Below the pieces are notes generated by a model, which saw nothing but the letters and a program-made list of their open reading frames with translations, was not told the DNA's origin and did not search any database. The position numbers were made by a program, and so were the translations under genes. DNA of 64,000 bases. Origin: Dehalococcoidia bacterium (lineage in GTDB: Bacteria > Chloroflexota > Dehalococcoidia > Lucifugimonadales > QGNO01). The stretch spans positions 549,820 through 613,819 of the forward strand of contig OZ240235.1 of assembly GCA_965197965.1 (NCBI GenBank), given 5' to 3'. Below, one piece after another: positions 24,814 through 47,130 of the stretch. Each line of letters opens with the position of its first letter. The first letter of the stretch is position 1.

Positions 24814-24888
24814 GCGGGGGTAGCTCAGTGGTAGAGCCCCTGCCTTCCAAGCAGGCTGTCGCGGGTTCGAGTCCCGTCCCCCGCTCCA
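24814..24888 (+). tRNA. tRNA-Gly (UCC)
   Basis: GCGGGGG-TA-GCTC-AGTGGTA-GAGC-C-CCTGC-CTTCCAA-GCAGG-CTGTC-GCGGG-TTCGAGT-CCCGT-CCCCCGC-T-CCA folds into a cloverleaf. The discriminator is U and CCA is encoded. Confidence 0.9.
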
Positions 24889-25103
24889 CGGCTATCTGTA
24901 TTTATGCCTATATATCGCAAATATTTCCATTAGTTATCACTTCCTGTATCATCTTGTGCTTCTCGTGTCTGACAATCCTTGGCTCCGGACATGGGGATTC
25001 GACCGGGGAGTCGAAACCGAGGGACTGAAGGCGTTGGCAATGTCATGCAGAACTGCTCGGACCACCCTGCAGGGTTAGCATCCCTGCAAATCGATAGCCC
25101 GTA

Positions 25104-25140
25104 GAGCCGCCCATTTAATCGGGGCGGCTCCTCTTGTTTG
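25104..25140 (+). terminator. Intrinsic-terminator-like hairpin
   Basis: GAGCCGCCC (25104-25112), a 9-nt loop, GGGCGGCTC (25122-25130), then CTCTTGTTTG. A second hairpin, TGCAGGG/CCCTGCA, lies at 25068-25088. Confidence 0.35.
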
Positions 25141-25362
25141 CCATTAATTCCGACAGATCCCCCTTTTACCGACGAGATTGCATGTGGTACGATTAAGATA
25201 CGTAGTTGCCCCACGAGAACAAATATAAGACTGAGACGCCTGCTAAACAGCTGCTTCAGTCTTAACGCAAACTCTTCCGGTAACCGTGCGGGTCCACCGA
25301 GAAGACGGCTTAATTCTTAGATCTCTTTCCGCTGGGTTGTTTGGCTGGGGTCAAGAGAACTA

Positions 25363-25587
25363 ATGAGTACACGTGTCCTAAGACTGCCGGAAATCCAGCA
25401 GTTGCTGGGTGGCGTTTCAAGAAGCACGATCTATAGATGGATCGCGGCTGGAATCTTCCCACAACCCCTCCACTTAGGCCCCCGGTCTGTGGGCTGGCCT
25501 TCGACCGATATTGAAGCTTGGATAAAGAGCCGCCGAAGGCGTGGCGGGTCTGATGGCGGAGGCATAGGGAACCAACCCTCTGCCTGA
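25363..25587 (+). CDS. AlpA-family phage/ICE transcriptional regulator (excisionase-like HTH)
   Basis: 74 aa. LRLPEIQQLLGGVSRSTIYRWIAAGIFPQPLHLGPRSVGWPSTDIEAWI matches the Phage_AlpA pattern. Confidence 0.75.
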   Translation: MSTRVLRLPEIQQLLGGVSRSTIYRWIAAGIFPQPLHLGPRSVGWPSTDIEAWIKSRRRRGGSDGGGIGNQPSA

Positions 25588-25599
25588 CTCGGGTATCTT

Positions 25600-26147
25600 G
25601 AACTACTTGGGGTAAGGCGGCGGTGTTCCTGCCTTCACGCGCCGGTGGGTCCGGCGCTTGCCAATCAGGCTAACTGTTTGGCGTGTCACTCCATAGCCCG
25701 CGGCGATCTCCTGGACGGGGTACTAGGTCATATCGGCGGCGTATTTCCAAGACTACATCACGATCAAGCATGGTCCTGGCTCCGGCGGCGGTTTGCCTTG
25801 ATGCGGCGCGCTATGGCTGTTGCACGTTCTTGCACAGCAGCTCTATCCCGTGCCGCCCTACCAGGCGAGCCGTCCGGTAAGTGGGGCAACTGCTCCGGCA
25901 TCTCGATCGGTACGAGGGACTTGAGGCGGCCGTCCGCGCGAACTCGCTTGTGGGTGTGCCCGTTGACTATGCGGGAGATAGTAGAGCGGGAGATAGGCTT
26001 GAACGTCGCCGTTATCTCCCCTACCTGATAGCCCTGGTTGTGGTACTGTAGTTGGGCCACGTCTTCTGTCACGAGACTCGTCTTTCCGATATGAAGTTCA
26101 GAACCACTAGACTTTGTGACTACCAAGTCGCCAACTGGCCGCCTCAA
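25600..26147 (-). pseudogene. Frameshifted HTH-domain gene remnants
   Basis: Two HTH-like segments lie on the minus strand in different frames: VAQLQYHNQGYQVGEITATFKPISRSTISRIVNGHTHKRV and VLEIRRRYD...QEIAAGYGVTRQTVSLIGKRRTHRRV. There is no intact long ORF. Confidence 0.3.
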
Positions 26148-26542
26148 GTTTCACAAGGCCATGCCGACATATGCTGGTAGTGATGCCGGGGAATGTTGAA
26201 GGCTACGCGGCACGCAGGGCGCAGGCTGTTTGCGTAGGGCTACGCCGGAACACAGGACGGTGGGGATTAGCTGGTGGCCATGCCCAGGCTACACACTCAC
26301 GACTAAATATAAAACCCCTCACGCCCTATATACGAGGTTTTGGAAGGTCTACTTTAACTCTCCTAAAATATGTATATATAAGTGACTGGAACACACCAGC
26401 GGTTCCGGCGCTGGCCCCGGGGCGGGGGTGAAACGGAGGGTGTCAACTTCGTTTCTCTAAAATATTATATAGGTGCCCCGCATGTCGCTCTCCCCAAACC
26501 CCGCCTTTGTGCCTGTAACGCCTTACTATAGGGGTGTTTGCG

Positions 26543-27054
26543 TTATGGAAACGACGCATAACGCCATGAAAGAGTCATGCTATCGACCGATAAGTGGGTG
26601 GAATTCGCCTGACTTTCTGCTTCGGCGAACAGCCCAGGCCACCTGCGCTTCGTCTCCACCCATCTCTGGCGGGACTGGAAGGGGCAGGCGACGCAGGCTG
26701 AGCGTTCTAGGGGCCTGTCGTAGCGGGCGTCCCACCAGTCGGCGCAGTCCCTCCTGGACATGCCAACCTCGATAAGCGGGTAGCGGTTCGTCATCCACGG
26801 GTCCCGGGAGTCCTTCATGCGGATGGCCTCGTCGGTGGAGATGCCGAGCTACGGTTCGACGTTCTTGCCGGCGGGTACGCGTTGCCGAGGCTTCGGCCCC
26901 AGCAACTCCCGTATCCTACGGCGGATGGGCCTGACCTTGTAGTTGGTGGTGCATTGGCGCATGCCCTCTGGGGCCTGGAATCCGCCAACGAGCTGTCCTA
27001 CCATGATGGTCATGCTGGCGTTGGTCCGGCAGTCCCCTTCTACCCCTCGTATTC
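26543..27054 (-). pseudogene. PAPS-reductase-family (phage-type) gene remnant with an internal stop
   Basis: The minus-strand reading is ...CTTNYKVRPIRRRIRELLGPKPRQRVPAGKNVEP*LGISTDEAIRMKDSRDPWMTNRYPLIEVGMSRRDCADWWDARYDRPLERSACVACPFQS. It resembles the C-terminal half of phage PAPS-reductase-like proteins. It is interrupted by TAG and lacks the N-terminal half. Confidence 0.45.
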
Positions 27055-27507
27055 CTCAATGCGCTGAGCGTCGACTACAACATCTACCTAATGTCACGCA
27101 TCCGCGAGGATGCAAGAGGAGCCCCGCTTACGGAGGCGACCCGCTATGCACTCGCGCGCACCGGACCCGTCATCACCTCGGCTGGGATTATCCTAGCTGG
27201 TACGTTCTCCGCTCTGATGACCCTTCCTCCCCAGGACCTGTTGCAGTTCGGATTCGGGGTTGCCGCTGGCGTTCTTATCGACACTTTCGTCACGCGCACA
27301 TTGATTGTTCCGTCGGTGGTTTCCATGGTAGGTCGATGGAACTGGTGGGCCTTCCCGCATCGGATACTGACTTGCTTTGTTCCGCATATGTCGCAACTGG
27401 TTGGATCAGCAATGGAACTTAATCCTTGCGGATCGCTTAGTCAAATGAAGTTATGGCGACCTAGCGACAGCCCGCTCCCTACGGCACACGGCGACAGCCC
27501 CTTGTAG
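27055..27507 (+). pseudogene. C-terminal fragment of an MMPL/RND-type transporter
   Basis: LNALSVDYNIYLMSRIREDARGAPLTEATRYALARTGPVITSAGIILAGTFSALM...GVLIDTFVTRTLIVPSVVSMVGRWNWW is the last TM bundle of MMPL proteins. The upstream ~700 aa is absent. Confidence 0.6.
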
Positions 27508-27787
27508 GCGTCCAAAGCCTCCCGGATGGACCGAGACCCAGGTCGTCTGCCAGGTCCTGAAGCGCCTTCAAATGCCGATAGCTGGGCCGTACTCCTCGCT
27601 GCCACCAACGCCTTACGGTGACGGGATCGACGCCGAGACGACAGGCGATCTCCACCCATGACAGGCCGGACGCGTGCTTGAACCACACCAGCCGTTGCGG
27701 AAAGTCGTCTGGGTAGGCGGGGGGCTTTCTCCCGTACTGTTCGCGCTGTCGAGTCATAGCGCCAATCCTTGTCACGGACGACCGCAA
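27479..27787 (-). CDS. HTH-domain protein (IS/phage type), function unknown
   Basis: 102 aa. SGLSWVEIACRLGVDPVTVRRWWQRG is a clear HTH. There is no transposase catalytic domain following. Confidence 0.4.
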   Translation of the reverse strand: MRSSVTRIGAMTRQREQYGRKPPAYPDDFPQRLVWFKHASGLSWVEIACRLGVDPVTVRRWWQRGVRPSYRHLKALQDLADDLGLGPSGRLWTPTRGCRRVP

Positions 27788-27842
27788 TCCAATCCGCAGT
27801 GGCTTTCCTGTTGCCAGGAAGCCCGAGCGATTGACCTCCCAC

Positions 27843-28913
27843 TCAATTCCCCGACGCGTCGTGGCGCCAGCCCGAGCCGAACGTCATCCCACCGTCGCTG
27901 ACTACCCAAACGCGCACGTCCTCCGTGGTCACCCAGTTGCCCTCTGCGGTGGCCTTGAACATATCCGTGCCGAGCAAGTCTTTGAGGTCCCTTCCCACCA
28001 TGCCTTTGTCGTAGTGGTCTACGATCGTACCGCTATCGTCCGCTATGAACGCGAACCAATCCCCTTCAACGTTCTCGGCACTGTTGTAGTACTCGATGGC
28101 CGCTGTCAGTCCGGCAAAATCGCTCTGCGGGCTGTTGAAGTATGCGATGGTCCCTTCCAGTCCTACCGAGCGGAACACGAGGACGGCGGCTGCCACAAAG
28201 GACTTGGTGAACTCGTCGGCGATGATGTACCAGCCGGAGGCGAACAGCAGCCCGTCGTGCCTCACCACCCAAGCGTTCTTGAGCTGCAACGTGCCGGTGT
28301 GGTCGTCCCCGATGCCGCCGCTCTCCGGGTTCCTGAACACGTAGGACACCCACTTGCCGTCCTCGGTGGCCGACAGCATGTCCGGCCCGAAGTTGTACCC
28401 GTTGGCGTCGGTCCCGACCCAGCCATTCACGTCCAGCCCCAGGCGCTGGGATTCGGGATGCCCGATGACCGCATCGTTCTCGTCTATGATGAACACGTAC
28501 CACTGGCCGTCGATGCTCTCTGGGCGGTTGTAGTAGGCGAGGGTGGCGTCGAGTCCCTGGGTCTCATACCTGCTGATGGCCTTCTCTACGAAGAACTTGG
28601 TGTACTCGGCAGGAGCGGACTTGGGCGGTACGGAGGCGACGACGCTGCGGGCGATGCGCTCGGCTTCGGCGGCGGTGACTCCGGGTTGCGCCGTGGGGAC
28701 CAAGGCGATGGCCGATTCGACTATCCGTTCGACCTCGGCGCGGGTGAGCCCGCGTTCCGACTGGGGCGTCGCAGGCGCTTCGGCCATCTCCGTGCGCACT
28801 ATCTCCTCGACCTCGGCCCGGGACAGCCCCGCGTCCTCGCCGCAGCCAACCAGGAGGAGGGTGATCAGCACGGCTGGCGCCGCCCATGAAAATGCTACCC
28901 TGGTGTTCTTCAT
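27843..28913 (-). CDS. Lipoprotein with tandem Cache-like sensory domains
   Basis: 356 aa with the lipobox LLLVGC. It has three short LxRAEVExIV repeats. Two segments have the Cache-type pattern (QWYVFIIDENDAVIGHPE... and DWFAFIADDSGTIVDHYD...). The stop is TGA. Confidence 0.65.
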   Translation of the reverse strand: MKNTRVAFSWAAPAVLITLLLVGCGEDAGLSRAEVEEIVRTEMAEAPATPQSERGLTRAEVERIVESAIALVPTAQPGVTAAEAERIARSVVASVPPKSAPAEYTKFFVEKAISRYETQGLDATLAYYNRPESIDGQWYVFIIDENDAVIGHPESQRLGLDVNGWVGTDANGYNFGPDMLSATEDGKWVSYVFRNPESGGIGDDHTGTLQLKNAWVVRHDGLLFASGWYIIADEFTKSFVAAAVLVFRSVGLEGTIAYFNSPQSDFAGLTAAIEYYNSAENVEGDWFAFIADDSGTIVDHYDKGMVGRDLKDLLGTDMFKATAEGNWVTTEDVRVWVVSDGGMTFGSGWRHDASGN

Positions 28914-28937: not shown

Positions 28938-29891
28938 TTAGAGACCTCCGATGTCGGCACTCCCATCGACCACGAAGTTGGAGTCTTCGGCAACTGCGTC
29001 GTGAGTTAGAACGGCGTCGTTTCCAGCGGCGTCCTTGATGACGCCGCCGTTCAAGCTCACTGCGTTCGCGCCGACGGCAACCCCATCACTGTCCGAGTCG
29101 TCGCTCAGTACCGTATAGCCAAACACCAGCCGGACTCCTCGGACTCCGGGGTTGAAGGCGCAGAAAGCAATCCCGAATTGGTTTGGCTCACATTTGGGCA
29201 CGGCGTAGTCGAAGTCAGCCAATTTGGCCGTACCCTCAAAGTCCAGTTCCAGATGGGGTGTGCCAGTGGCGACTACGTCTTCGCTGAACACCGCGTCAGT
29301 AACGAGCTTTTCTCCGGCGGTGTAGACGCCATCTCTTCCTCCGGTACTTGAGACGAAGGAGACGGACGATATGGTGGGGCGAACCCCGTCCACCTTGTGG
29401 CCCGTCTGGACGGCCAGTGCACCATGGGACAGGTCGGCTGCGTTGTCGGCGGCGTCCTTGATGGTGCCCCCGTTCAGCGTCAGCTTGTTGGCGCCTATGG
29501 CGATTCCGTCGTCGTCCGAGACGCCCTCTGCCACCGTGTAGCTGAAGACCACATTGGTAGTTGTGACGCTCTCGTAGGCAGCAGCTTTGCCGCTCCCGCC
29601 GATTTCCAGTTCGAGCTGGGGCGAGCCTGTAACGGTAATGTTCTCGCTGAACGTCACCGTTACCTTGATACTGTCGCCGATCCCGTAGACGCCATCATCA
29701 TCGAAGGATGAGTCGTCATCACCAGTGTCGCTGGTGATGGCAACGGACGAGATGGTTGGAGCCGTCGTGTCGGTCTGAGCCGACACCGAGGGTAGACCGT
29801 CGAATGCGAACAGTCCGATGATTCCCATGAGCGCTCCAACCACAAGCGCCCATGCCAGTTTCCCTCTAACCGTTCCAATCTCTATGGCCAT
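28938..29891 (-). CDS. Membrane-anchored/secreted protein with two ~115-aa Ig-like surface repeats
   Basis: 317 aa with an N-terminal hydrophobic anchor. The repeats run (A/R)PTISSV...P(Q/H)LEL...(F)(S/G)YTV...DSDG(I/V)A(I/V)GAN...LNGG(T/V)IKDAA(D/G)N. It ends ...ADIGGL. By my count the stop triplet sits 1 nt left of the track coordinate; I kept the track coordinates. Confidence 0.6.
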   Translation of the reverse strand: MAIEIGTVRGKLAWALVVGALMGIIGLFAFDGLPSVSAQTDTTAPTISSVAITSDTGDDDSSFDDDGVYGIGDSIKVTVTFSENITVTGSPQLELEIGGSGKAAAYESVTTTNVVFSYTVAEGVSDDDGIAIGANKLTLNGGTIKDAADNAADLSHGALAVQTGHKVDGVRPTISSVSFVSSTGGRDGVYTAGEKLVTDAVFSEDVVATGTPHLELDFEGTAKLADFDYAVPKCEPNQFGIAFCAFNPGVRGVRLVFGYTVLSDDSDSDGVAVGANAVSLNGGVIKDAAGNDAVLTHDAVAEDSNFVVDGSADIGGL

Positions 29892-29952
29892 CTTGTTCCT
29901 CTCTCTGGAGATTTGGGAGCCTTCCCTTGGGTTCGCTCCGAGGGTTTAGTCG

Positions 29953-31905
29953 TCATAGCCCTCCCATCACCACTGCCGTCGTACTCTCGCTGGTCAGCAA
30001 CTCAAAATTGCCGGCGTCGTCTGAGAACCGGACCCGCACCTTCATGACCTTGCCGTTGTCGGAAGCCTGGAGCGTGTATGTGGAACTCGTCGCCCCGTCG
30101 ATTTCCGTGTCGTCAGCCAGCCACTGGTATCTGTAGGACACGTTGTCCAGGCCGTCGGCGTCGGAGATTCCATCCGTGCTTGCCGTCAGGGTTTGTCCCA
30201 CCTGCGGCGTTCCACTGATGGTGGGGGCACCCGTGGCGGGGGAGTTGGAGACCTGCTGCTGTTCCACCACGCGGGCAGGTGTTGCCGTGACTTCAGTAGA
30301 TGGGTCACCATCGCCAACACCGTTCGCCGCGATGACCCGCACAGTATAAGAGACGCCGTTGGTCAAACCTGTGATGATATGTGAAGTTGCGGTGACCGTT
30401 TCCTCAGAGACGTCGTCCGGAGTTTCCCAGCTGTCCGAATCTTCCTTCCACTGCACTTTGTACCCGGTGATTGCCGTGCCGCCGTTGGAACGAGGCATTT
30501 CCCAGGACAGGGCAAGTTGAGCGTCACCAGGAGTGGCCGTCAGGTCATACGGGAACCGCGGCGAGTTAAAGACTAAGCCGAACCAGCGGTACCGCCTCGT
30601 CTCCATACCAAACCGTATCCCACCGGCGGCGTCACTGTCCTGGACCGCGGCGGACAGCAAGCCGACCTTGCCGTTGAACTGTATTTCACCGGCGAAGATT
30701 GGGGTCGCCGTAATCACTCCACTCGAAGTGTCTCCGGCGTTGAGGGTGACCGTCGTGCTGGACAGCGTAACTCTCTCGCCCCAAAGGGTGACTTCCAGGT
30801 TGGATGGAGCGGGTTTACTGAGGGTGACCTCCCAGGCAAAGGTATAGAACTCCTCGGCATCGCGCGATTCCAAACTTACCTCGATAGCGGTTACCGCCAT
30901 CTCTGTGACTTCAGCCGACGCTGCGTTGTCACCGTTCTGGTTGAATGCCAGCACTCGCACCGTGTAGGCGACGCCATCGGTCAAATCTGTGATGGTGTGC
31001 GACATTCCGGTCACTGTAGCCTCGGACACGTCGTCCGGAGTTACCCAGCTGCCCGAATCCTCCTTCCACTGCGCTTTGTATCCTTGTATCGGAGAACCGC
31101 CGTCGCTGGCAGGCGCTTCCCAGGACACGGCAAGTTCCTGGCTTTCACCCGAAGAGACCTTCAGGTTCCGAGGCGCGTCCTCCGCTGTGGTCGCCACTAC
31201 CGCAGTCGCAGCGCTCGTGAGCGTTTCGTTGTTGTCGGCGTCGTCGGTGAAGTTCACCTGCACCTTGATGGTCTTTCCCATGTCTTCGTCGGACAGCGTG
31301 TATGTGGCCTCCAACATGCCCCAAATGTCTATGTCCCCGACCCCCCGCGCGCCCGGAATGTCTGTGTCTTCAACCCCGTCGTTGGATATCCACTGATAGA
31401 TAAGGAAGAATCGGCTGTACCCCTCTTCGTCCTCGATGTCCGACATGGAGACTGTGAGTGTCTGCCCTGCCTGTGCTACTCCAATGATGACAGGCGCGCC
31501 CGTCGCGGGCGTGTTCGCAGCGCGGGTCACCGTCACGGTGTACGTCTGTGTGGTGTTCCCGTCTTCGGCGGTTACTTCTACTGTGATGACGTTGCTACCT
31601 ACACTCAGTGAAACGGTGCCATCCGTGTCTTCAACTCCGCCGAGCTTTGTGACGTAGCTGGCCCCTGAGTGGCTCACGGTGGGAGTGACGGTGGTCTGTT
31701 TCACGCCATTGGCGACGCTGGCAGTGTAAGAAGTGGTGCCTGATGCGAATGTGGCCAAGTCCACGTCACTCAGCGTCAGGTCACTGAGCGTGGCGTCGCT
31801 GCTCTGGCCCTCGGCCAGGACCGTATGGGTGAGGAAGACCAACCCCACCGCGAGGGCAATGAGCAAGATTCGAACAGTTAGGCTGATTCGCTTTGTTGTG
31901 CCCAT
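29953..31905 (-). CDS. Secreted protein: cadherin-like beta-sandwich + 2 FN3 + 2 'YQW' modules
   Basis: 650 aa with a signal peptide. ATLSDLTLSDVDL...TTQTYTVTVTR is a cadherin-like beta-sandwich pattern. Two FN3-like units are present (SWE(A/M)P...GG..I.GYK.QWKEDS.SW...YTVRV.A.N). Two ~88-aa YQW modules are present. It ends AVVMGGL-TGA. Confidence 0.75.
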   Translation of the reverse strand: MGTTKRISLTVRILLIALAVGLVFLTHTVLAEGQSSDATLSDLTLSDVDLATFASGTTSYTASVANGVKQTTVTPTVSHSGASYVTKLGGVEDTDGTVSLSVGSNVITVEVTAEDGNTTQTYTVTVTRAANTPATGAPVIIGVAQAGQTLTVSMSDIEDEEGYSRFFLIYQWISNDGVEDTDIPGARGVGDIDIWGMLEATYTLSDEDMGKTIKVQVNFTDDADNNETLTSAATAVVATTAEDAPRNLKVSSGESQELAVSWEAPASDGGSPIQGYKAQWKEDSGSWVTPDDVSEATVTGMSHTITDLTDGVAYTVRVLAFNQNGDNAASAEVTEMAVTAIEVSLESRDAEEFYTFAWEVTLSKPAPSNLEVTLWGERVTLSSTTVTLNAGDTSSGVITATPIFAGEIQFNGKVGLLSAAVQDSDAAGGIRFGMETRRYRWFGLVFNSPRFPYDLTATPGDAQLALSWEMPRSNGGTAITGYKVQWKEDSDSWETPDDVSEETVTATSHIITGLTNGVSYTVRVIAANGVGDGDPSTEVTATPARVVEQQQVSNSPATGAPTISGTPQVGQTLTASTDGISDADGLDNVSYRYQWLADDTEIDGATSSTYTLQASDNGKVMKVRVRFSDDAGNFELLTSESTTAVVMGGL

Positions 31906-31918
31906 ATCTAGTCTCCTT

Positions 31919-33232
31919 CTACAGGCCTCCCACGAGCGTCAGGTCACTGCCGGCGACTATCTCAAGACCTATGAGCCTGGTCCCACTCTTAGCAACCGAA
32001 TCGACGCTGACCGTGACCGTGCCGGAGGCCGTCACGGTGATGGTCTCGCTCTCCAAGGCGCCGCGAGCGATTGTGACAGTCTCGGCGGAAAGCGTGCCTC
32101 CTATGGCCGAAAGGGTTACCGACAACGAAGACGGCGCTCCCTGGTCGATACTGACGACCACACCGGCGCCTTTCTTTTCCAACTCCGCGGTGATGGTGAA
32201 CGGCGCCCCGGGGTTTTGGTCGAATTCCACGCTATCCAGATTTCCGAGGCCTTCGAACACGCCTGCGGGCAATGTTGATATCTGGTTATGACTCATGACT
32301 AAGGAATTCAAATCGCCCAGACCCTCGAACGCGCCTGAGGGCAACGCCGTGATTTTGTTGTTGAATAGGGTCAGTTGCTGCAGTTCGCCAAGGTCGCCGA
32401 ATACGCCCGAGGGCAACGCCGTGAGCTCGTTCCTGCTCAGGTACAACCACGTCAAATTGCCGAGGCCGTCGAACACCCCCTCGGGCAACGCGGTGATCTT
32501 GTTCTGGTGCAGGTTCAGGGCCATCAGGTTGGTGAGCCCGTCGAACACCTCCTCCGGCAATGCAGCGACCGAATTCCTGGGGAGCTCCAGTGAGTTGAGG
32601 CTAGTTAGCCCATCGAACACTTCCTCCGGGAGCGCGCTGACCTTGTTGGCGGTGAATGTGAGATCCTTCAGGTTGGTCAGGCCATCGAATATTTCCTCAG
32701 GCAGCGCCGTAAGACCGTTCTGGTACAGCTTCAGGTTCTGTAGGTTGGTCAGGCCGTCGAACAGGTTCTCCGGGAGCGAGCTCACCTCGGTGAAGGTCAG
32801 GTTCAGGCGTTTGAGTTCGGTGAGTCCGGAGAAGATGTCCTCGGGCAGCGAGGTGATCTGGTTGTCGTCCAGTTTCAGTTCCTGCAACCCGCTGAGACCG
32901 GCGAAGTCCCCGGACTTGAGGGAGGTCACCCCCATATTGGACAGAGCAAGCGTCCCGCTTATCCCTGACAGGTTGGCGTCGGTGACGTCCCCGCAGGCGG
33001 TAACGTCTGACAGCTTGGCAAGGATGGCGTCCTGGACCTTCTGGGTGCGGCCGCAGATACCCGGCGTGGGAGTGGGAGAGGGTGTGGGGGTAACGGCTTG
33101 CGCCAGGGCCATGCCGTGATTCGTGGGGAGGGCGAGACCTGCCGCCAGTGCGGCAGCGACCGCAAGAGCCGCGAGCAGGATAGCTGCACGCTTCAAGCTG
33201 ACCCAGCTCGTCAATACGGTCAATCTGCTCAT
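31919..33232 (-). CDS. Secreted leucine-rich-repeat (LRR) protein
   Basis: 437 aa with a signal peptide. It has the Cys-containing cap GICGRTQKVQDAILAKLSDVTACGDVTDANLSGIS and about 11 LRRs (L..L.L..N.(I/L)(T/S)(S/A)LPE..F.GL). The C-terminal beta-rich cap is NPGAPFTITAELEKKG.... It ends LTLVGGL-TAG. Confidence 0.8.
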   Translation of the reverse strand: MSRLTVLTSWVSLKRAAILLAALAVAAALAAGLALPTNHGMALAQAVTPTPSPTPTPGICGRTQKVQDAILAKLSDVTACGDVTDANLSGISGTLALSNMGVTSLKSGDFAGLSGLQELKLDDNQITSLPEDIFSGLTELKRLNLTFTEVSSLPENLFDGLTNLQNLKLYQNGLTALPEEIFDGLTNLKDLTFTANKVSALPEEVFDGLTSLNSLELPRNSVAALPEEVFDGLTNLMALNLHQNKITALPEGVFDGLGNLTWLYLSRNELTALPSGVFGDLGELQQLTLFNNKITALPSGAFEGLGDLNSLVMSHNQISTLPAGVFEGLGNLDSVEFDQNPGAPFTITAELEKKGAGVVVSIDQGAPSSLSVTLSAIGGTLSAETVTIARGALESETITVTASGTVTVSVDSVAKSGTRLIGLEIVAGSDLTLVGGL

Positions 33233-33272
33233 CGATTCTCCTGAATGTCAGGCCGATGCAATTGGCAGCTCC

Positions 33273-34415
33273 CTACAACCCGCCCATAACCACCGCCGTG
33301 GTTCCCTCGCTTGTCAGCGATTCTTCGTAGCCCGCGTCGTCCGTGAAGCTCACTCGCACCTTGATGACCTTGCCGTTGTCCGATGACTGGAGCGTGTAGG
33401 TGGAGCTCGTAGCCCCATCGATTTCGGTGTCCCTGCTCGACAGCCACTGGTAGCTGTAGGACACGTTGTCCAAGCCGTCAGCGTCAGAGATTTCAGACGT
33501 GTCTGCTGTCAAAGTCTGTCCCACCTGCGCCGTTCCGCTGATTGTCGGCGCACCAGTGGCGGAGGAGTTCTGAACGGTAACCGTCAGGTAGTACAGGTGG
33601 CCTGCGCCGTTGTTTACGTTTCCTGTATTGATGCCGATGCCAAGCCGGTTTTCGCCCCGGCCCAGATTAATCTGAAAGCCATTTGTGTCGTCGTCGGCAT
33701 CGTTGAGGACGATACCGGTAGTGGTCCCGTTCCCGTAGGAGTAGTTGCAGGTTCCTTGCAACGGTCCACCCCAGCAACCTGAGATTACTCCCCAGATCGG
33801 GTTCTTGACGAAGACGGTAAAGTAGCCGGTCAAGACGGTGGATTCCAAGGTGATGGATTCAGTATCGGTGGGGACTTCAGCGTCATATCGATTTATTCCC
33901 CTATCAAAGGAAGGGTTCAGAGTTCCAGAACTGATGGTCAGCGCCGTCAGTGGCGCCGACGAGTAAGTGCCTTCCCTGAGATTGAACGCCCCCATGGCAA
34001 TTTGAGTTGAGGAAACGAGGTTGTTCGCTTCGTTTTCGCCGCAGTACAGTTCCACTTCGACTTTCGGAAGTCTGGTAACGCCGCTCGGACTAAGGGGGAT
34101 TTCATGGGAGATTGCCTTGGTTGCCTCATTGCTGCCGGAGGCCACTGAGCCGAGGTGGGTGCGGGACGTCTCCGCGTCGTTGCTAGGGGGTCTGACCGCC
34201 AGGTAGAGGTTGTAATCGGATGAGCAGTTGTCCGGATCTGACCAGGAGACGGTGTCATCGGCGTCAGTTATCACAACCGTGATGTACGCTTCGGGGTCAG
34301 ACCCGCTCTGAGCGGCAACGTGAGAGGGACTACCCGACACCACAAGAGTCAGCCCTAACACGGCCCCAATGAGGGCCACCACTATCGGAATGCCTGCTCG
34401 ATTCACTATGTTCAT
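33273..34415 (-). CDS. Secreted protein: unknown N-domain + cadherin-like beta-sandwich + C-terminal YQW module
   Basis: 380 aa with a signal peptide. LTALTISSGTLNPSFDRGINRYDAEVPTDTESITLE is present. The C-terminus ATGAPTISGTAQVGQTLTADTSEISDADGLDNVSYSYQW...KVIKVRVSFTDDAGYEESLTSEGTTAVVMGGL is followed by TAG. Confidence 0.65.
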   Translation of the reverse strand: MNIVNRAGIPIVVALIGAVLGLTLVVSGSPSHVAAQSGSDPEAYITVVITDADDTVSWSDPDNCSSDYNLYLAVRPPSNDAETSRTHLGSVASGSNEATKAISHEIPLSPSGVTRLPKVEVELYCGENEANNLVSSTQIAMGAFNLREGTYSSAPLTALTISSGTLNPSFDRGINRYDAEVPTDTESITLESTVLTGYFTVFVKNPIWGVISGCWGGPLQGTCNYSYGNGTTTGIVLNDADDDTNGFQINLGRGENRLGIGINTGNVNNGAGHLYYLTVTVQNSSATGAPTISGTAQVGQTLTADTSEISDADGLDNVSYSYQWLSSRDTEIDGATSSTYTLQSSDNGKVIKVRVSFTDDAGYEESLTSEGTTAVVMGGL

Positions 34416-34474
34416 CTCGCCTCTCTCCTATCTCAGGTTTGATCTTCGGACAGACGTCTGCCTGGTTCCGATTC

Positions 34475-36442
34475 CTACAGCCCACCCATCACCACTGCTG
34501 CCGTTCCTATGCTTGTCAGGGACTCCTCGTTGCCCGCGTCGTCGGTGAAGGTGACCCTGACCTTTATGACCTTGCCGTTGTCGGTTGACTGGACGGTGTA
34601 GATGGAGTTCGTCGCGTCGTTGATTTCGGTATCGTCAGCCAGCCACTGGTAGCTATAGCTCACGTTGGTCAGACCGTCGGCGTCGGAGATCCCGGACGTG
34701 CTTGCCGTCAGGGTCTGGCCAACTTGTGCGGTTCCACTAATGGTGGGAGCGCCTGTTGCCGGAGTGTTGGCCTGCGACGCAGACGAGAGGGTGAGGCTAT
34801 CGCCAAGGCCGGTCTGGATGCCCTGGTATGAACCCTCCAGGAAGGCGGAGGCAACCACGGAGACCGTCACGCCGTCGTCATCGCTTATCGGGGAGGTGAT
34901 GACACCGCTCTCCAGATCGCCGCCGTTTACGGAGACGATCAGGTTGGAAGAAAGCACCCCGGCTTTGAAGTTCAGGGTGACCGACATGTTGAAGGGAGCG
35001 CCCTCGGCGATCTTGACCACCACGCCGTTGTCGCCCCGCTGCTCCAACTCCGCCGTGAACGTGAAGGGTGTTCCGGGGTTGTTGCCCATGTAGAGGGTTT
35101 CCAGGTCGCCAAGGTCCTGAAAAATCCCATCGGGCAATGCATTCAGTTTGTTGTTGGTGAATATCAACCTGTCGAGGTTGGTGAGGCCGTCGAACAGGTC
35201 CTCGGGCAATGCAGTAATCGGGTTGGTGGAGAGCACTAAGTTTTCCAGGCTGCTGAGGCCGTCGAACACGTCCTCCGGCAGTGCAGTCAGCTGGTTGTTG
35301 TGCAGACGCAGGTCCGTCAGGCTGGTGAGCCCGTCGAATACCTCCTTGTGCAGCTCCCTTATCTGGTTAGTTCCCCCCAAGGCCAGGATTTGCAGGCTGG
35401 TCAGTCCGTCGAATACGTCCTCGGGCAGTGCCGTCAGGTCGAGGAACAGGTACAGCCGTTGCAGATTGCCGAGTCCCTCGAATACGTCCTTGGGCACCGA
35501 CCTGATGTAGGAGGAGCCGGTCGGTTGAAGCCACGTCATGGAGCTGAGTCCAGCGAAGTCCCCGGACTTGATGGACGTGGCGCTTGTGAAGCTGACGACC
35601 AACTTGGTTATGCCGGCCAGGTGCGCGTCCGTGACGTCGGCGCAGTCGCTGACGTCGGACAGCAGGGCCAGAATGGCGTCCTGCACCTCCTGGGTCCGGC
35701 CGCAGATGCCCAGAGGAGCGGCCAGCGTGAGTTCAAGATCGTCGGCCTCTTCCCACGTGAGGCCAAAGTAGCTTGAATAGTCGGTGGCGCTGAAGTCGGA
35801 CGACTCCACGCTCACGGTCACCTGCACGTCGGCGGTCTGTACCCGGCTCTGGTCGCTGGGGGAGAGGCTCACAGCATCGCTCTTGATGCTGCCTCCCTCA
35901 ACTGTGACCGCCGTCGAGGACAGTGTTCCGCCCTCGGCGGACAGCGTGATTTCCATGTCGAAGGGCGCGCCCTCGGCGACCTTGACCACCACCGAGTTCG
36001 AGCCCTCCTGCTCCAGCGTCATCGTGAGGCTGAAGGGAGACCCCGTATTGAAGTTCAGCCACAGGGTGTCGAGGCTCTCGAGGCCCTCGAAGATGCCGTC
36101 CGGTAGATCGCTCAGGTCGTTGGTGTCGAGATAGAGCTGCTCCAGGCCGGACAACCCCTTGAAGTCTCCGGTCTTGAGCGCAGAAATGCTCTTGTCCGAA
36201 AGGGTCAGGGCGCCCGTTATGCCTGCCAGGTGTGAGTCGGTGACATTGGCGCATTCGCTAACGTCGGACAGCTTGGCGAGAATGGCATCTCGCACTTCCT
36301 GGGTGCGCTCGCAGATGCCGGAAGACTGGGCGAGGACCGTGCTGCTCGGCGGGATGGACACTGAGGCGGCGACGACGGCCATCACCAGCAGCGCCATGGC
36401 TACCGCAGTCTTGGTTCGCATTTTAGGTCTTCGAATTGTCAT
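34475..36442 (-). CDS. Secreted double-LRR protein with C-terminal YQW module
   Basis: 655 aa with a signal peptide. It has two GIC(E/G)RTQEV(R/Q)DAILA.LSDVS.CA.VTD.HLAGIT caps, each followed by LRRs and an NPG(T/S)PF(T/S)... cap, then a YQW module. It ends AAVVMGGL-TAG. Confidence 0.8.
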   Translation of the reverse strand: MTIRRPKMRTKTAVAMALLVMAVVAASVSIPPSSTVLAQSSGICERTQEVRDAILAKLSDVSECANVTDSHLAGITGALTLSDKSISALKTGDFKGLSGLEQLYLDTNDLSDLPDGIFEGLESLDTLWLNFNTGSPFSLTMTLEQEGSNSVVVKVAEGAPFDMEITLSAEGGTLSSTAVTVEGGSIKSDAVSLSPSDQSRVQTADVQVTVSVESSDFSATDYSSYFGLTWEEADDLELTLAAPLGICGRTQEVQDAILALLSDVSDCADVTDAHLAGITKLVVSFTSATSIKSGDFAGLSSMTWLQPTGSSYIRSVPKDVFEGLGNLQRLYLFLDLTALPEDVFDGLTSLQILALGGTNQIRELHKEVFDGLTSLTDLRLHNNQLTALPEDVFDGLSSLENLVLSTNPITALPEDLFDGLTNLDRLIFTNNKLNALPDGIFQDLGDLETLYMGNNPGTPFTFTAELEQRGDNGVVVKIAEGAPFNMSVTLNFKAGVLSSNLIVSVNGGDLESGVITSPISDDDGVTVSVVASAFLEGSYQGIQTGLGDSLTLSSASQANTPATGAPTISGTAQVGQTLTASTSGISDADGLTNVSYSYQWLADDTEINDATNSIYTVQSTDNGKVIKVRVTFTDDAGNEESLTSIGTAAVVMGGL

Positions 36443-36790: not shown

Positions 36791-39700
36791 CTACTGCCCC
36801 GGCCCGGAAACAGTGAACACCAGACTATTGGACAGCTTTCTGCCGTCCTCCGTGCAGACGGCTCCCTGAGCCTCGCAGTCCGTCGTGACGGGCAGAACGA
36901 TGGTCACATCCTCGCTGGAGTCTGGCCTCACCATTATTCGCCACTTGATGTTGCTTGGCTTGTCCATGCGTTGAGCCTTTAGAATGGACCCACCGGTCAC
37001 AGTAAAGGCATGGAACTTTAGGGTCTTGTAGCTGAGCGGAATTTCCTCGCTGAACCGGATGTCGAATGTGAAGACATTCGAGGCGCCGTGGTGGCCGGCC
37101 ACGGGGAACACCAGGCGGACGGTCAGCGGCGTGGGCTTCGCCGCCACCGCCGCCGTCGCATCGCTGGTCAGCGTCTCATCGTTGTCGGCATCGTCGCGGA
37201 AGGAGACCCGCACTTGGATTGTCTGCCCTTTCTGCATGTCCTTGAGGGTGTAGCTGGAGCCGGTGGCCCCCGAGATGTCCGACCCTCCGGCGGTCCACTG
37301 GTAGCTGTACGAGACGTTGGTCAGCCCGTCCTGGTCGGCGATGTTAGACGTGTCAGCGGTCAGCGTCTGGTCCACCTGGGGCGTCCCGCCGATGGTGGGC
37401 AGTCCGGTGGCCGGAGAGTTGGGCTTGGCCGCAACCACCCCTGTCGCCGCGCTGGTCAGCGATTCGATGTTGTCCCGGTCGTCGGCGAATCTCACCCTTA
37501 CCGTGACGGTCTTGCCCTGCTCGTTGGCGGTGAGGGTGTAGGTCGAGCGGGTGGCCCCGATGGTCAGGCCCCCGGCCCTCCACTGGTAGAAGAAGGTGGC
37601 GTTCGTTATCCCGTCGAGGTCGGAGATGTTCGAGGTGTCCGCCGTCAGCGTCTGGCCCACGCGGGCCGTACCGTCGATGGTGGGCTTGCCGGTGGCCTGA
37701 CGGTTGGGTGCCGCAACCACCGCGCCCGTCGCATCGCTGGTCCGGGCCTCTGCGTTGTTCCGGTCGTCGATGAAGAACACCCTGACCTGGATGGTCTGCC
37801 CCTGCTCGCTGGAGGTGAGCAGGTAGCTGGGTCCGGTGGCTCCGTCGATGTCCGTACCGCCGGAAATCCACTGGTAGCCGTAGGACACGTTGGTCAGCCC
37901 GTCCTGGTCGTCTATGGGCGAGGTGTCCGCAGTCAACGTCTGGTCCACCTGGGGGGTCCCGCCGATGGTGGGCTTGCCCGTGGCCGGGGTGTTCTCGGCT
38001 GGCTCAATCACTCTGACGGCAACCTCATCCCCCTCGGACAAGTCCAGTCCCGGGTCGTTCCACTGGAACTGGATGATGGAGATGGAGTCCCTCTCCAGGG
38101 TCGATGCGTCGGTAGAGGCGAATTCGTCCGTCCCAACCACTAGGACAAAGTCGGCAGCCAATTTTGGCATCACTGAGAGAATCAGCTTGCCGTTCAGAAC
38201 CCCCAAGGCCCTGACGGTGTAGCTGGCATCGTCCAACGTGATGGTGTCGGACGAGAGAGCACCCAGGGTGTTGGTTTCCGGCAAAGACAGGAATGTCGTA
38301 TAGCCGGCAAAATTCTCTCCGCCCCCTACCGTCAAGGTCGCGGACCATATCGGTTCTTCCTGTGGTGTTCCAGAGGCTTCGGCCGACGTGGGAACGCCAA
38401 ACACCCAGGGGCGGGCCTGTTTGATGGACAGAACATCGTCGCTGGTGATCTTGAACTCGATTTCCATTGCGAAGGGTTCGTCGGGTCCGGGGTTGTACAG
38501 ACCCTCGAAATGGTCATGGATATCCTGGAGATGCCGGCGCAACTGGTCAATTTGAGCATCGCTCATGAGGAGTTGTCCTCGCGGCACCTGGTTGGAGGTT
38601 ACCAGGGTGGTGTATGAACCGGACAGGTCCAACAGGATTTCCTCGGGCACCGAGTGTGCGTCGGGATTGGTGACCAGGTCCTCACCCAGTTGCGTGTTGA
38701 CGTAGTAGCTCCCGTCCGTTTCGTAGATAGGGTCGAAGCTGACGGCCACGCCGTTGGCCAGCTCGTCCGAGTAGTTGGGATGGACCAGCACCCCCATCGC
38801 CGTCGCCAGGTGGTCGATGCGGTGGAACTCGCGTTCAGTGAATGCCCGGAAGTTCCACAGGCTGGCCCACACCCCTTTGATGGACTTGTCGATGCCGTCC
38901 TCCTCCGTCTCCTCCGGGTCCTGGGTCTTGGAGTCGTACAGCCCGGCGCCGCTGAAGCCCGGCAGGTCTTCGTTGTTGGTGCTGGACCGGTATCGCAGCG
39001 ATTGCCCTTCAGGGTAGGTGGCGTGCATCTCCTCCAGCGCGTCGATGATCCAGTCGGGCGTCTCCCCCTTCTTTATCTTCTTGCGGAGTTTCTTGAGTTC
39101 TTTCTCTTGAGTGTCATAGTCCGACTGGAAGTCCGGGTCTTCCAGCATCTCTTCGATATCGTCATAGAACCCGTTGTGCTTCATGAACTCGTCGTAGAAG
39201 TAGAAGGGCACCACGAACCCGTCGGGGACGGTTCCGTCGGGAAAACCCAGCGTCCGCAGCACGGCCACGTTGGCCGCCTTGACTCCAAACGCATTCCAGT
39301 CGTCGAAGCCAATGTCGTCCAGGTCGGTGATCTGGGTGACTGTGAGGTCCCGTTCCGGCGTCTGGGTTCCGGGAGGGCGCGAAGCGGCGAAGTAGGCCTC
39401 GACTTCGGCGGGAGTGGCGGCGCGGATGGAGTAGCCGTCCGCCGTGACGCTGTAGTGGACGTATCTGCCGATGAGATCATCGATGTCGCCGTCGTCTAGG
39501 GCGTCGCGAATGAAGGCGTTGGGGACACCGTCCTGGACGGCCCGCAGGTTGACGTGGGAAAGCGGTGTCTGGGGTACGGTGGTGATGAGGCCGGCGACCC
39601 GGGAAAGCTCGTTGGGGATAGTCTCGTAGATCACCACGTCGCGCGGGTCGGGGCGTTCCTCCAGCGACATGAGCCTGAGGAAACCGTACCCTTCCCCAAC

Positions 39701-42700
39701 GTTGAGGGGGAGGAATGGAACATCTGGCAGGATGTCCTCTCTCAACACCACATTGATCCGGGAATCATCGTAGAGGGCCCGTTCTCTGTGATAGAGCGGC
39801 AGGGCTCTCCTCGGCATGGGGTAATAGGCAAGGTTGTCATCAAGCAGCGCCATACTGGCCGCCAAAACCTCATACGAACGGGCCACATGGCCGAAGGGGT
39901 ATGCATCCATAGGCTGGAACTGGTAAAGGTAGACGCCCAGGGAACCATCAGGAGCAACCACATTGGGGTGGTATATGATCTCGCCGCCCATGTACCCCTG
40001 TCCCCAGAGTGGGTCGTCCCAGAGACCGATTGCATCCCCGAAATCGGGATGTATTCGGTGGGTCTCGGTGTTCATGAAATAGATGCCCATGTTGCCGGTA
40101 GACACGCCGATAATGTAGAACTTGACAAACTCCAGGTCCTGGAGATGGCGGTGATAGGGAACGTCTCTGCCCTTGTAGGAAAGCGCCTCAAATGTCTCAC
40201 GGTCTGGAATGGCAACAGCGCCATCAGGAAAAGGGACCGCCCTAGCGGGGTTCAGCGGGTTCATCGTCACCGGGTCCCCCAATTCGGTGATGTCGTCGAT
40301 GCAGTCGTTGTCGATGTCGGCCGGGTCGGCAATGAGGAACTTTTCCACCCGGTAATGTTCCTTGGGGAGCGGGGACAACTGCTCAGTCAGCGTTGTTGTG
40401 CCGTCTTCGCCCAGGGTCACCGAGACCGGGAACTCTCGTTCGGAGTCCAGGGCGGGCCGCACGTAGAGCACAAAGTATTCCTCGGTGGTGGACTCGACGA
40501 TAGCGGGAACGGCTTGAACCTCTACCGCCGTTGCCGCCGTGGCATGCTCGCCGACCGTGCACGCCACGACTGATACCTTGACCGTCCTATCACTGGTCAG
40601 CGCCTCCAGGCTGCCTGCGTCGTCATAGAACGACACCCGCACGCTAATGGTCTTGCCAAGGTCAGCCATAACCAGGGTGTAGGTCGAAGCCGTCGCTCCT
40701 TCGATGTCGGAGGAATTGCTCCCGAAGGGGCTGCGGACCCACTGGAAACTGAACGCGTCATCGTCGAGCCCGTCGGGGTCGGCGACCCCTGACACGTCCG
40801 CCGTCAGCGATTCGCCGACTTGGACGGCGCCGCTAATGACGGGCGCTCCCGTCGCGGCACGGTTGGCGGCCACCCTGAGAATCCTGTCGACGCCGGGTCT
40901 GTTGGAGGTGGCGATGTACAGAGCCCCGTCGGGGCCGAGCACCGGGGTCCGCAGTCGGCCGTGGCTGCCGTCGAGCTCCGGAACGACGATCTGACCCGCG
41001 AAATCGCCCTGTTCGGTGAACTCGAAGACCCGCAGCGACTTCGTCTTGAGCGTGGCCACCGCGAGTCGCCCTTCCCACTCCCCCCATTGGGGGCCCTGCA
41101 GGAAGACGGCCCCGCTGGTCGCCAGGGTGGGGAATCCCGAGGACCATCTGGCCTGGCGGGCAGATGGGAACTTCGCCAGGTCAGTCATGGGGACGCCGGC
41201 CTCGTCGGAATAGTCGTAGAAGACCAACGTGCCGTCGTCCGGGATCGGGTCCCAGCCGTAGTTGCCCCCTGGTGCGAGCAGATTGATCTCGTCGTCGTGT
41301 TTCGGGCCGTGCTCCACCAGCCACATCTGATCCGTGCCCGGGCGCAGAGCCAGGCCCTGGGGGTTGCGGAATCCGTAGGCGTACACCGGCGAGGAGGCGT
41401 CGAATGGATTGCCGGGCGCCCCGGCGCCCGTCCGTGGGTCTACGCGGAGGACCTTGCCGCCCAAGGACGTCAGGTCCTGCGCGCCCGTTACCACCCGCCC
41501 GTCGCCGGTCGCGATCCATAGATATCCCTCCGGACCGAAAAGCAGCCGGCCTCCCGAGTGCCAGGGGCCCGGACCGATCGGCATGCCCTTTACCAGGGGA
41601 TCGACGACGCGTGTGGCTTCGTCGTAGTCCGCGTCGATCGTCCAGGCGATCACCTGCATCTCGCGTCCGGCGTGCCCCTGGAGCGTGTAGAACCGCCGGT
41701 TGGTCGTAAAGTCCGGGTCCACGGCCAGCGCCTGCAGACCGGCGAACCCGTCGACCAACAGATCTCCGAGATCCGCGGCGACCCGCTTGACGGTGCCGTC
41801 GGTCAGCCTCGCGTTCAGCACGCCGGCGCGCTGGGTGAACAGCATCGTCCCGTCTGGGGTGAAATCAATGCCCCAGGGGTAGGACAGGCCCGTGACTATT
41901 TCCGTCACCGTCAGTTCCGGACCCGGCTCGCGGGCGCCCACGACGGCGGGCGAAACAGCTTCCGCGGACTTGCCGGGGCCCTGCCCGTCGGTGTACGACG
42001 CCTCGGCCTTGAGCAGCATCCCTTCGTCTTCTTCAGTTGGAACGTAGCTGTCTCCGTCGTCGTAGGCCTCGACGCCGGTCCAGGCGGTTCCGTCGGAGGA
42101 CCTGGCCCAGCTCCAAGAAACCGCGCCCGAAGACGCCGCAGGGCCCGAGCCGCCGCCCTCGAGGCCGTCGGGATCGCTCAGCGCGGCGCTGACCACCGTC
42201 CCGACCCTCGGCCTCGCCGGAAAGAGCGAAACGGTTCCGGGCCAATCCGCCGCCTTGATAGCCTCGGTGGCCTCGCTGGTCAGCGTTTCATAATTGCCAC
42301 GGTCGTCGACGAACGCCACCCGCACTTTGATCCGCTTGCCCATATCCTCGGCGACGAGCGTGTAGGTGGGCGAGCCGGTCCCGATGTTCGTCTCGGTCGC
42401 GCCGTCGACCCGCATCCACTGGTACGAGTAGGCCGCCCGGGTCAGCCCGTCGTCGTCCGACACGTCGGAGACCGCCGAGGCGAGCGTCCCCTTCACCTGC
42501 GGCGTGCCCGTGACCGTCGCCTCGCCGGCAGCCGGGTTGTTGATGAAGGAGCCTCTCGCCTCGATCTTGTAGGAAAACGCGTCGGAGGCCCATCCCTGAG
42601 CAGCGGCCTGAGGAGAATATGTCGCGCTTCCGTCCGCGATGGACCACCCCTCCGCGGCTCCCGTGTCTTCGGAGCCTCTCGCCGTTCCACTGATGGCGAT

Positions 42701-46957: not shown

Positions 46958-47056
46958 GTGGGCGGACGAGAGACCACGACTCAGGGTCACCAGTCCGGGA
47001 CCGAACCCCTGCTGGACGGGCTAGATGCGGTTCAAGTTATTCAATCACCACTGTAG
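46760..47056 (+). pseudogene. Truncated duplicate of the sensor-kinase N-terminus
   Basis: MKAAFGAIQTRVLQMLWLDPGEASYAAKVTVWLRWLFWVGAVIELAYRPTFTQAKYIPFMLMHVP matches the first ~65 aa of the 62681..63892 kinase. It then diverges and stops. No HisKA or ATPase part is present. Confidence 0.75.
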
Positions 47057-47130
47057 GGACAAGTAGTACCGGGGAGAGACGGGAGGCAGGCATCGCAATC
47101 AGGGAGTTCATACGTGGCCCAGGCCTGACC

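Follow-up and report, generated by a model that had tools for sequence, protein, structure and literature searches.

The well-known C-terminal sorting signals of bacteria are, to our knowledge, all tripartite. In the LPXTG/sortase, PEP-CTERM/exosortase, GlyGly-CTERM/rhombosortase, PGF-CTERM/archaeosortase and MYXO-CTERM/myxosortase systems, the signal combines a motif, a transmembrane helix and a basic cluster. We know of no tri- or tetrapeptide C-terminal tag described for bacterial proteins that are exported by the general secretory (Sec) pathway. Here we analyse a stretch of 64,000 nucleotides from a Dehalococcoidia bacterium (assembly GCA_965197965.1, contig OZ240235.1, positions 549,820 to 613,819 of the forward strand; hereafter the window), in which five consecutive genes encode secreted proteins ending in Gly-Gly-Leu (-GGL), an ending that we call the tail. 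It resembles the sortase-type signals in being a short C-terminal signature on unrelated signal-peptide proteins of one lineage, which would imply the same logic of many substrates for one reader, and it shares with GlyGly-CTERM the central Gly-Gly. In contrast to these signals, the tail proteins stop one residue after Gly-Gly and have neither helix nor basic cluster, and a scan of the five proteins and their neighbours against NCBIfam gave no sorting-domain match (E <= 0.01 to 0.1). An earlier reading of the window, made from its letters (hereafter the sequence-only reading), knew of no described -GGL sorting signal; in agreement with this, our literature search found no published -GGL or Gly-Gly-Leu terminal signal and no sorting signal of the SAR202 lineage.

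The tail can also be compared with the ends recognized in PDZ ligands, by DegS (YxF) and by Prc/CtpA, and with the eukaryotic peroxisomal targeting signal 1 (PTS1, -SKL) and KDEL. As in these, it is made of three to four residues at the extreme end, and it shares with signals that are read by their free carboxylate a hydrophobic last residue (85 of the 85 tails collected here) and cargo proteins that are unrelated to each other. A further likeness, purely one of analogy, concerns the substrates of penicillin-binding proteins (acyl-D-Ala-D-Ala) and of asparaginyl endopeptidase ligases (Asn-His-Val, Asn-Gly-Leu), in which a small residue precedes a hydrophobic last one. Transpeptidation with such a short leaving group spends one or two C-terminal residues and achieves attachment outside the cell without adenosine triphosphate (ATP). 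However, most tails have no Asn or Asp at P1 and they consist of L-amino acids.

Other known types of C-terminus were considered and rejected. For the C-terminal domain of type IX secretion, a beta-sandwich of 70-100 amino acids, the proteins gave no match to a hidden Markov model, and the terminal modules that bear the tail are of at least seven unrelated kinds. A type I secretion signal does not fit five proteins that all have N-terminal signal-peptide-like sequences. A ubiquitin-like Gly-Gly(-X) terminus fits neither the tandem Ig-like fold nor the presence of export signals.

The tail in the window

The sequence-only reading had described five consecutive secreted proteins with -GGL ends, and the open reading frames, their coordinates, ends and stop codons were all recovered as follows:

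28938..29891, minus strand: Ig-like protein of 317 amino acids with a signal peptide and two tandem Ig-like domains, tail ...SADIGGL
28938..28952, minus strand: its tail IGGL and TAA stop (GGL codons GGA GGT CTC)
29953..31905, minus strand: secreted protein of 650 amino acids with a cadherin-like domain, a YQW module, two fn3 domains and a terminal YQW module, tail ...TAVVMGGL
29953..29967, minus strand: its tail MGGL and TGA stop (GGL codons GGA GGG CTA)
31919..33232, minus strand: secreted LRR protein of 437 amino acids with a beta-rich C-terminal module (LRR-C), tail ...DLTLVGGL
31919..31933, minus strand: its tail VGGL and TAG stop (GGL codons GGA GGC CTG)
33273..34415, minus strand: secreted protein of 380 amino acids with a terminal YQW module, tail ...TAVVMGGL
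33273..33287, minus strand: its tail MGGL and TAG stop (GGL codons GGC GGG TTG)
34475..36442, minus strand: secreted protein of 655 amino acids with two LRR blocks and a terminal YQW module, tail ...AAVVMGGL
34475..34489, minus strand: its tail MGGL and TAG stop (GGL codons GGT GGG CTG)

The five genes are co-directional and consecutive, with intergenic gaps of 13-61 nucleotides, and the N-termini of their products, read from the sequence, consist of a basic stretch, 18-20 hydrophobic residues and an AxA-type site that Gln or Glu follows. Among the 504 stop-to-stop open reading frames of at least 60 amino acids in the six frames of the window, exactly these five end in GGL. Pfam recognizes LRR, fn3 and cadherin-like domains in the tail proteins, and the YQW module weakly matches the AIR9 Ig domain and the ZirU family (Pfam/NCBIfam). 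In the protein encoded at 34475..36442, an internal LRR-C module without the tail follows each of the two LRR blocks, ahead of the terminal YQW module. No record was returned by an exact look-up of the 28938 protein sequence, nor any significant match by a PDB sequence search with the Ig-like family. From residue frequencies, we estimate the chance of three independent origins of one given tripeptide among about eight adjacent genes at approximately 1e-8, and still at approximately 1e-4 when all 8000 tripeptides are allowed for.

The DNA on the 3' side of the five stops is unrelated among the genes, with nothing conserved, and a scan for promoters and terminators between 27400 and 37000 gave counts equal to those of shuffled sequence. 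Two trivial origins of the ending were rejected. A Shine-Dalgarno artefact, in which GGAGG within the Gly-Gly codons would serve the next gene, is at odds with the gaps of 13-61 nucleotides, which place it too far upstream, and with the variable codons. Read-through or recoding of the tail stop is at odds with the occurrence of all three stop codons.

The tail lies at a domain boundary

The terminal YQW module is homologous in three of the five genes, and the alignment agrees with the sequence-only reading that this explains their shared ending. The same reading had found the sequence before the tail to be different in the 28938 and 31919 proteins: no homology is detected there, BLASTP giving no match or E values of 0.9 to 2.5 among the three terminal module types of the window, and hhalign probabilities of 0.2%, 3.6% and 0.4% among the YQW, LRR-C and Ig-like terminal modules. 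Thus the possibility that the two non-YQW proteins bear diverged YQW-derived tails finds no similarity in its favour with either method.

The comparison of terminal with internal copies of the same module locates the tail precisely. In the window alignment, the terminal YQW module ends ...AVV-MGGL, and the internal copies, which do lack MGGL as the sequence-only reading held, run on as ...AVV-AAPN, ...VVA-AKPN, ...AVV-ATTA or ...AVAAKPT. The terminal LRR-C module ends ...DLTL-VGGL against internal ...SLTL-SSAS and ...LELTL-AAPL, and over its internal and foreign copies the residues after ...LTL are SSAS, AAPL, SR or APAG instead of VGGL. A homologue search with this module of 101 amino acids returned 3 proteins only; a distant homologue on another contig (P0132) ends ...PLTL-SR, without tail. 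In the 28938 protein, the terminal Ig-like domain ends ...VVDG-SADIGGL against ...KVDG-VRPTISS inside, and an eighth example, from a locus of the Acidimicrobiia, opposes an internal repeat ...NGSFV-TGPAF to a terminal ...NGHFV-GGL. Because the internal copies run into linkers exactly there, the tail is a discrete addition of about four residues at the domain boundary, and on these alignments the tails are not a matter of simple homology.

In the AlphaFold model of the 28938 protein (predicted local distance difference test, pLDDT, 84), residues 306-308 form the last strand, and the final 8 residues are coil with a pLDDT of about 62. Since these eight residues form low-confidence coil after the last strand, the tail is predicted to lie outside the fold. 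Foldseek relates this model to generic folds of the tandem Ig type, SiiE and titin among them.

Conservation of the tail in related genomes

Relatives were sampled as 75 loci of about 20 kb each from a scan of species-representative genomes, giving with the window 76 sources and 1.58 Mb. They are mostly Dehalococcoidia metagenome-assembled genomes (MAGs), one of them labelled SAR202 cluster bacterium, with a few Latescibacterota, Acidimicrobiia and others; four further loci (L077-L080) were found from homologues of the Cache-type lipoprotein described below. The best 120 homologues found with the 28938 protein (38-95% identity) include 46 with GGL and 8 with GGV at the end, and frameshifts or truncations are visible in most of the others. 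Just before Gly-Gly, both sequence and length vary through insertions and deletions (DIGGL, NIGGL, AVGGL, GAGGL, APGGL, PNQIGGL, PNRIGGL). A regular expression for the Ig-like motif near the C-terminus matched 103 non-redundant sequences, and 81 of these bear the tail; some 15 of the 22 tail-less matches are false by eye (unrelated or spurious open reading frames), which leaves approximately 81 of 88 genuine Ig-like ends, or about 90%. The tail is therefore kept in orthologues.

GGL is also the commonest C-terminal tripeptide among the 5529 open reading frames of at least 100 amino acids (62 times, with GGV 18 and GGI 7 times); the next commonest, RRR, comes from spurious GC-rich frames. In a non-overlapping set, the ends GGL, GGV and GGI occur in 65 of 408 signal-peptide-like frames, whereas the 940 frames without such a start include only 13, mostly fragments (Fisher p = 1.6e-23). 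The tail-bearing terminal modules comprise the Ig-like (41), YQW (18), LRR-C (5), cadherin (3), GDDGW (3), YCNG (3) and Calx-like (2) classes as well as singletons, so that at least seven classes unrelated in sequence bear the tail. In one close relative (L001), five tail genes are likewise consecutive and three of them end in a cadherin-type module. The view that the ending is no coincidence is thus borne out: it is conserved, it is enriched among signal-peptide-like proteins, and it stands on modules without detectable homology; chance is a negligible explanation.

The consensus of 85 unique tails is I, M, P, V, A or L, then Gly-Gly, then L (64), V (14), I (4) or M (3). Gly-Gly is invariant (85/85), and the last residue, directly before the stop, is L, V, I or M in all 85. 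Accordingly, the tail proposed in the sequence-only reading stands, but not its restriction to GGL, the last residue following the order L>V>I>M. All four Gly codons are used at both positions, in the proportions of genes generally; all six Leu codons and all three stops occur among the related loci and the window, and no DNA position is conserved downstream of the tail stops across loci. Since codons and stops vary and no downstream DNA is conserved, selection acts on the protein.

Several side observations concern the tail genes. TAG is over-used after the tail (38 of 69 genes, as compared with 187 of 537 other long open reading frames; Fisher p = 0.0014, uncorrected for relatedness). At L069 9659-10651, the stop after ...ADIGGL is lost and the frame runs on for 22 residues, as a "masked tail" variant or a sequencing error. 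Some tail proteins (L077 4391-6286, L078 4927-7939) start with TDRRRFPVL..., which resembles a twin-arginine signal, and from this start some members of the family may be exported folded by the twin-arginine translocation pathway.

The Cache-type lipoprotein next to the tail genes

A single conserved gene of the arrays is neither tail-bearing nor regulatory. In the window it lies 24 nucleotides downstream of the last tail gene:

27843-28913, minus strand: Cache-type lipoprotein of 356 amino acids with the lipobox LLVGC (Cys23)

Its AlphaFold model (pLDDT 66) consists of a flexible helical-repeat linker of about 75 residues and then two PAS/Cache-like modules. Foldseek matches it to the dCache ligand-binding domains of chemoreceptors for amino acids (Mlp24, PctA/C, CtaA) at a probability of 1.0 but with low template modelling (TM) scores; the small ligands of this fold class carry a carboxylate, and free Leu, Ile and Val are among them. 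A PDB sequence search gave no significant match. A tandem PAS/Cache-like fold would be a feature in common with the Cache domains of chemoreceptors and kinases; in contrast to these, the window protein is a free-standing lipoprotein without transmembrane signalling module.

Genomic linkage connects the tail genes with the lipoprotein gene. Fifty-two copies of the latter are found in 47 of the 76 sources, usually directly after a tail gene, which can belong to the Ig-like, YQW or LRR-C class. The converse search, begun with Cache homologues and without regard to the tail, arrived in 4 of 4 loci (L077-L080) at tail genes lying just upstream; L077 has three of them before the Cache gene and two after it, and in L079 the Cache gene starts in overlap with the stop of its tail gene. 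The lipoprotein is conserved at 62-94% identity (best 120 of more than 1300 matches), far above the adjoining tail proteins.

In a Latescibacterota MAG (L073), a lipoprotein with 72% identity accompanies tail genes in the same locus. Tail genes and the Cache gene are seen together in two Latescibacterota loci (L073, L074) and one of the Acidimicrobiia (L049), with a different GC content of 0.62-0.67. Their joint presence in MAGs assigned to other phyla, together with the 72% identity, suggests horizontal transfer of the cassette.

Proteins without the tail

The tail is not a general feature of secreted proteins: in the same loci, 343 signal-peptide-like open reading frames lack it, among them solute-binding proteins, lipoproteins and other secreted proteins. 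It is specific to small and mid-sized proteins (about 100-1250 amino acids) made of adhesin-like modules. In the window, as the sequence-only reading had noted, the Cache-type lipoprotein (...DASGN) and two giant proteins (...SGPGQ and ...RYFAV) end differently, the latter being:

36791-45976, minus strand: giant YQW protein of 3061 amino acids, end of the ...FTVSGPGQ type
52362-62072, minus strand: giant protein of 3236 amino acids, end ...EKNDVLALVARYFAV

Giant YQW proteins (1-8 thousand residues) have the tail in 0 of the 150 best of 26,016 representative matches to the terminal YQW module; these 150 are all giant multi-repeat proteins and are uninformative on how widely the tail is spread.

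The giant proteins have recurrent ends of their own. In 24 of the best 150 matches (P0133-P0282), including the 3061-residue protein of the window, the end is of the form ...TDC..GAIC..LSN.L.FTVSGPGQ/GG, and in about 16 it is ...YTYRIKAIN..SERSRW.HIDTPAAP; such ends could be terminal domains that serve a separate function. An open reading frame of 104 amino acids in L001 (3906-4220) ends ...DEVIGMVQLYFFSV, to be compared with the ...EKNDVLALVARYFAV of the 3236-residue protein, and the two ends may represent a shared short C-terminal element of another kind.

Proposed function and alternative explanations

We tentatively favour the reading that the tail is a modular C-terminal recognition tag, kept by selection at the protein level, which the Cache-type lipoprotein captures with surface retention as the result. 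That the tail is bound, that its binder is this lipoprotein and that the outcome is surface retention is what we infer from an ending that is conserved, associated with signal peptides and placed outside the predicted fold, and from its linkage to the lipoprotein gene. The sequence-only reading had proposed such a tag, for export, processing or attachment, and a functional C-terminal tag is borne out as far as the sequences reach. The proteins would be exported by the Sec pathway and their signal peptides cut at the AxA-type site, after which they would carry no other anchor. Being flexible, and ending in a hydrophobic residue whose carboxylate is free, the tail would protrude from the last beta-sandwich module and be captured by an extracytoplasmic partner, most likely the membrane-tethered Cache-type lipoprotein encoded in or at the end of the array. 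The LRR, Ig-like, cadherin-like, fn3 and YQW adhesin-like proteins would thereby be held on the SAR202 surface. SAR202 genomes are reported to be without peptidoglycan synthesis genes (PMC6306507), so that the cell probably lacks peptidoglycan and sortase anchoring to a cell wall would be no option; no sortase-type gene is found among the recurrent array neighbours in the 64-kb window and the 20-kb loci. Docking on the lipoprotein would explain why the tail is the only element common to such diverse proteins, why the lipoprotein is the only conserved array gene that is neither tail-bearing nor regulatory, why the two were transferred jointly across phyla, and why the fold class involved is one whose ligands are small carboxylates.

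A bolder form of this reading, which we consider doubtful, is that the arrays are a self-contained, horizontally mobile surface-display cassette in which the lipid-anchored Cache receptor grips the free Gly-Gly-Leu/Val/Ile end non-covalently ("tag and dock"). If this were the case, the cassette would provide the wall-less SAR202, and other symbionts that acquire it, with interchangeable adhesin-like modules, the terminal tetrapeptide would be a new kind of bacterial sorting signal, comparable to the eukaryotic PTS1 and KDEL, and a protein C-terminus would be a new class of Cache ligand. The recognition of a tag would in itself give a simple sequence rule for spotting surface or secreted interaction proteins of SAR202 and uncultured lineages in metagenomes, and a handle on how a cell that is probably devoid of peptidoglycan retains adhesin-like proteins. 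It would also offer a testable function for the very abundant family of free-standing Cache lipoproteins, and a specifically recognized terminal tetrapeptide could serve as a small affinity or display tag.

Several points weigh against capture of the tail by the lipoprotein. The loci were gathered by means of one tail-bearing family, which biases the counts, and the sequences are phylogenetically related; genes and signal peptides were called with simple heuristics of our own, and the p-values are only indicative. The assignment to the Cache class is itself fragile, the Pfam scores for sCache_3_2, dCache_2 and sCache_2 being below their cut-offs (26.6/28.4, 23.4/26.5 and 22.8/25) and the structural matches having low TM scores (0.2-0.5) with a model of pLDDT 66 only. 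Some tail genes lie in loci without Cache gene within 10 kb. Gly-Gly at positions -2/-1 fits none of the PDZ, DegS, Prc/CtpA, PTS1 and KDEL classes; for PDZ domains, the class-defining residue at -2 (Ser/Thr, hydrophobic or Asp/Glu) is replaced by an invariant Gly, and the tail is also no ...LAA-like end. Finally, the lipoprotein may instead be the accessory sensor of a two-component system, in relation to the following gene, a possible regulator:

62681-63892, plus strand: HisKA_3 histidine kinase that has about 5 transmembrane helices but lacks an extracellular domain

A homologue of this kinase is found near tail arrays in 25 of 80 loci (about a third), together with a GerE-type regulator. 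Such a role fits because there are several Cache copies per genome and a neighbouring kinase without sensor.

The likeliest alternative is covalent processing by an unlinked enzyme, a peptidase or transpeptidase that would remove one or two residues from the end and either leave -GG or join the protein to an amine of a lipid, S-layer or matrix, by analogy with D-Ala-D-Ala transpeptidation and asparaginyl endopeptidase ligases, the Cache protein being only a sensor. An invariant Gly-Gly (85/85) followed by an interchangeable L, V, I or M suits a scissile site with its leaving group, the modelled tail is flexible and exposed, peptide-bond exchange is economical outside the cell where there is no ATP, and a kinase without sensor domain of its own gives the lipoprotein a separate job. 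We nevertheless hold this explanation to be rather unlikely, as no enzyme with such specificity is known and no protease or transpeptidase gene recurs near the arrays, where the recurrent neighbour clusters of the related loci are antisense open reading frames, CoA-transferases, an RCC1-repeat lipoprotein and transposases. The one hydrolase candidate recurs in one other locus only:

46855-48267, plus strand: S9/alpha-beta-hydrolase-like gene, adjoining the giant genes

The tail could also be directed at a host or at other cells, as a short linear motif at the end of secreted "eukaryotic-like" proteins, a sponge protein (PDZ-like or another C-terminal binder) reading it and recognition or phagocytosis being modulated as a consequence. 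The carriers, with their LRR, cadherin, fn3 and Ig domains, belong to the classes postulated for the interaction of sponge symbionts with their host (PMC6306507), and the tail is present in MAGs of three phyla with different cell envelopes. This reading is unlikely in our view: Gly at -1 and -2 matches no canonical PDZ class, and the transfer of the Cache lipoprotein alongside the tail genes suggests that the partner is bacterial. The names of several related MAGs appear to be those of sponge MAG sets, and for most records a sponge origin is presumed. Among the neighbour clusters examined, the arrays have no linked PDZ or S41 gene, no genome-wide search having been made. Still less probable is a structural or protective cap without any receptor, in which the hydrophobic end residue, brought round by a Gly-Gly turn, would cover the exposed face of the terminal beta-sandwich, or the tail would slow down a carboxypeptidase. 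It would suit beta-rich modules of tandem type, in which another domain follows the internal copies and the tail follows the terminal ones; however, AlphaFold does not pack the tail against the domain, the distant LRR-C homologue and the giant proteins built of the same YQW modules do without it, and an identical solution on seven folds in one lineage is more typical of a shared reader. Descent of all the tails from one end of YQW type, or their spread through recombination or gene conversion at the 3' ends, can appeal to the homologous terminal YQW modules of three window genes; it is largely refuted, and highly improbable, in view of the lack of sequence or profile similarity among the YQW, LRR-C and Ig-like modules, the free variation of synonymous and stop codons next to unconserved flanking DNA, and the indels and varied residues before Gly-Gly (DIGGL, NIGGL, GAGGL, APGGL, PNRIGGL).

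Other features of the window

The gene content of the window is typically SAR202-like, with family III CoA-transferases and FAA hydrolases. The S9-like hydrolase is 98% identical to L077 16863-17591, which indicates that the L077 contig comes from a very close relative of the genome of the window. The following features lie apart from the array:

51492-52322, minus strand: secreted protein of 276 amino acids with a long (PEPEPTAT)n linker
24814-24888: tRNA-Gly
25363-25587, plus strand: AlpA-like excisionase open reading frame
27091-27507, plus strand: C-terminal fragment of an MMPL protein

The secreted protein of 276 amino acids ends with ...ESSGGAPAW, a transmembrane helix and RRRRR, a tripartite end that resembles a signal of sortase or rhombosortase type and that no NCBIfam model matches. 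The region 24814-27800 has, after the tRNA-Gly gene, the appearance of a decayed integrated element and is otherwise free of convincing genes.

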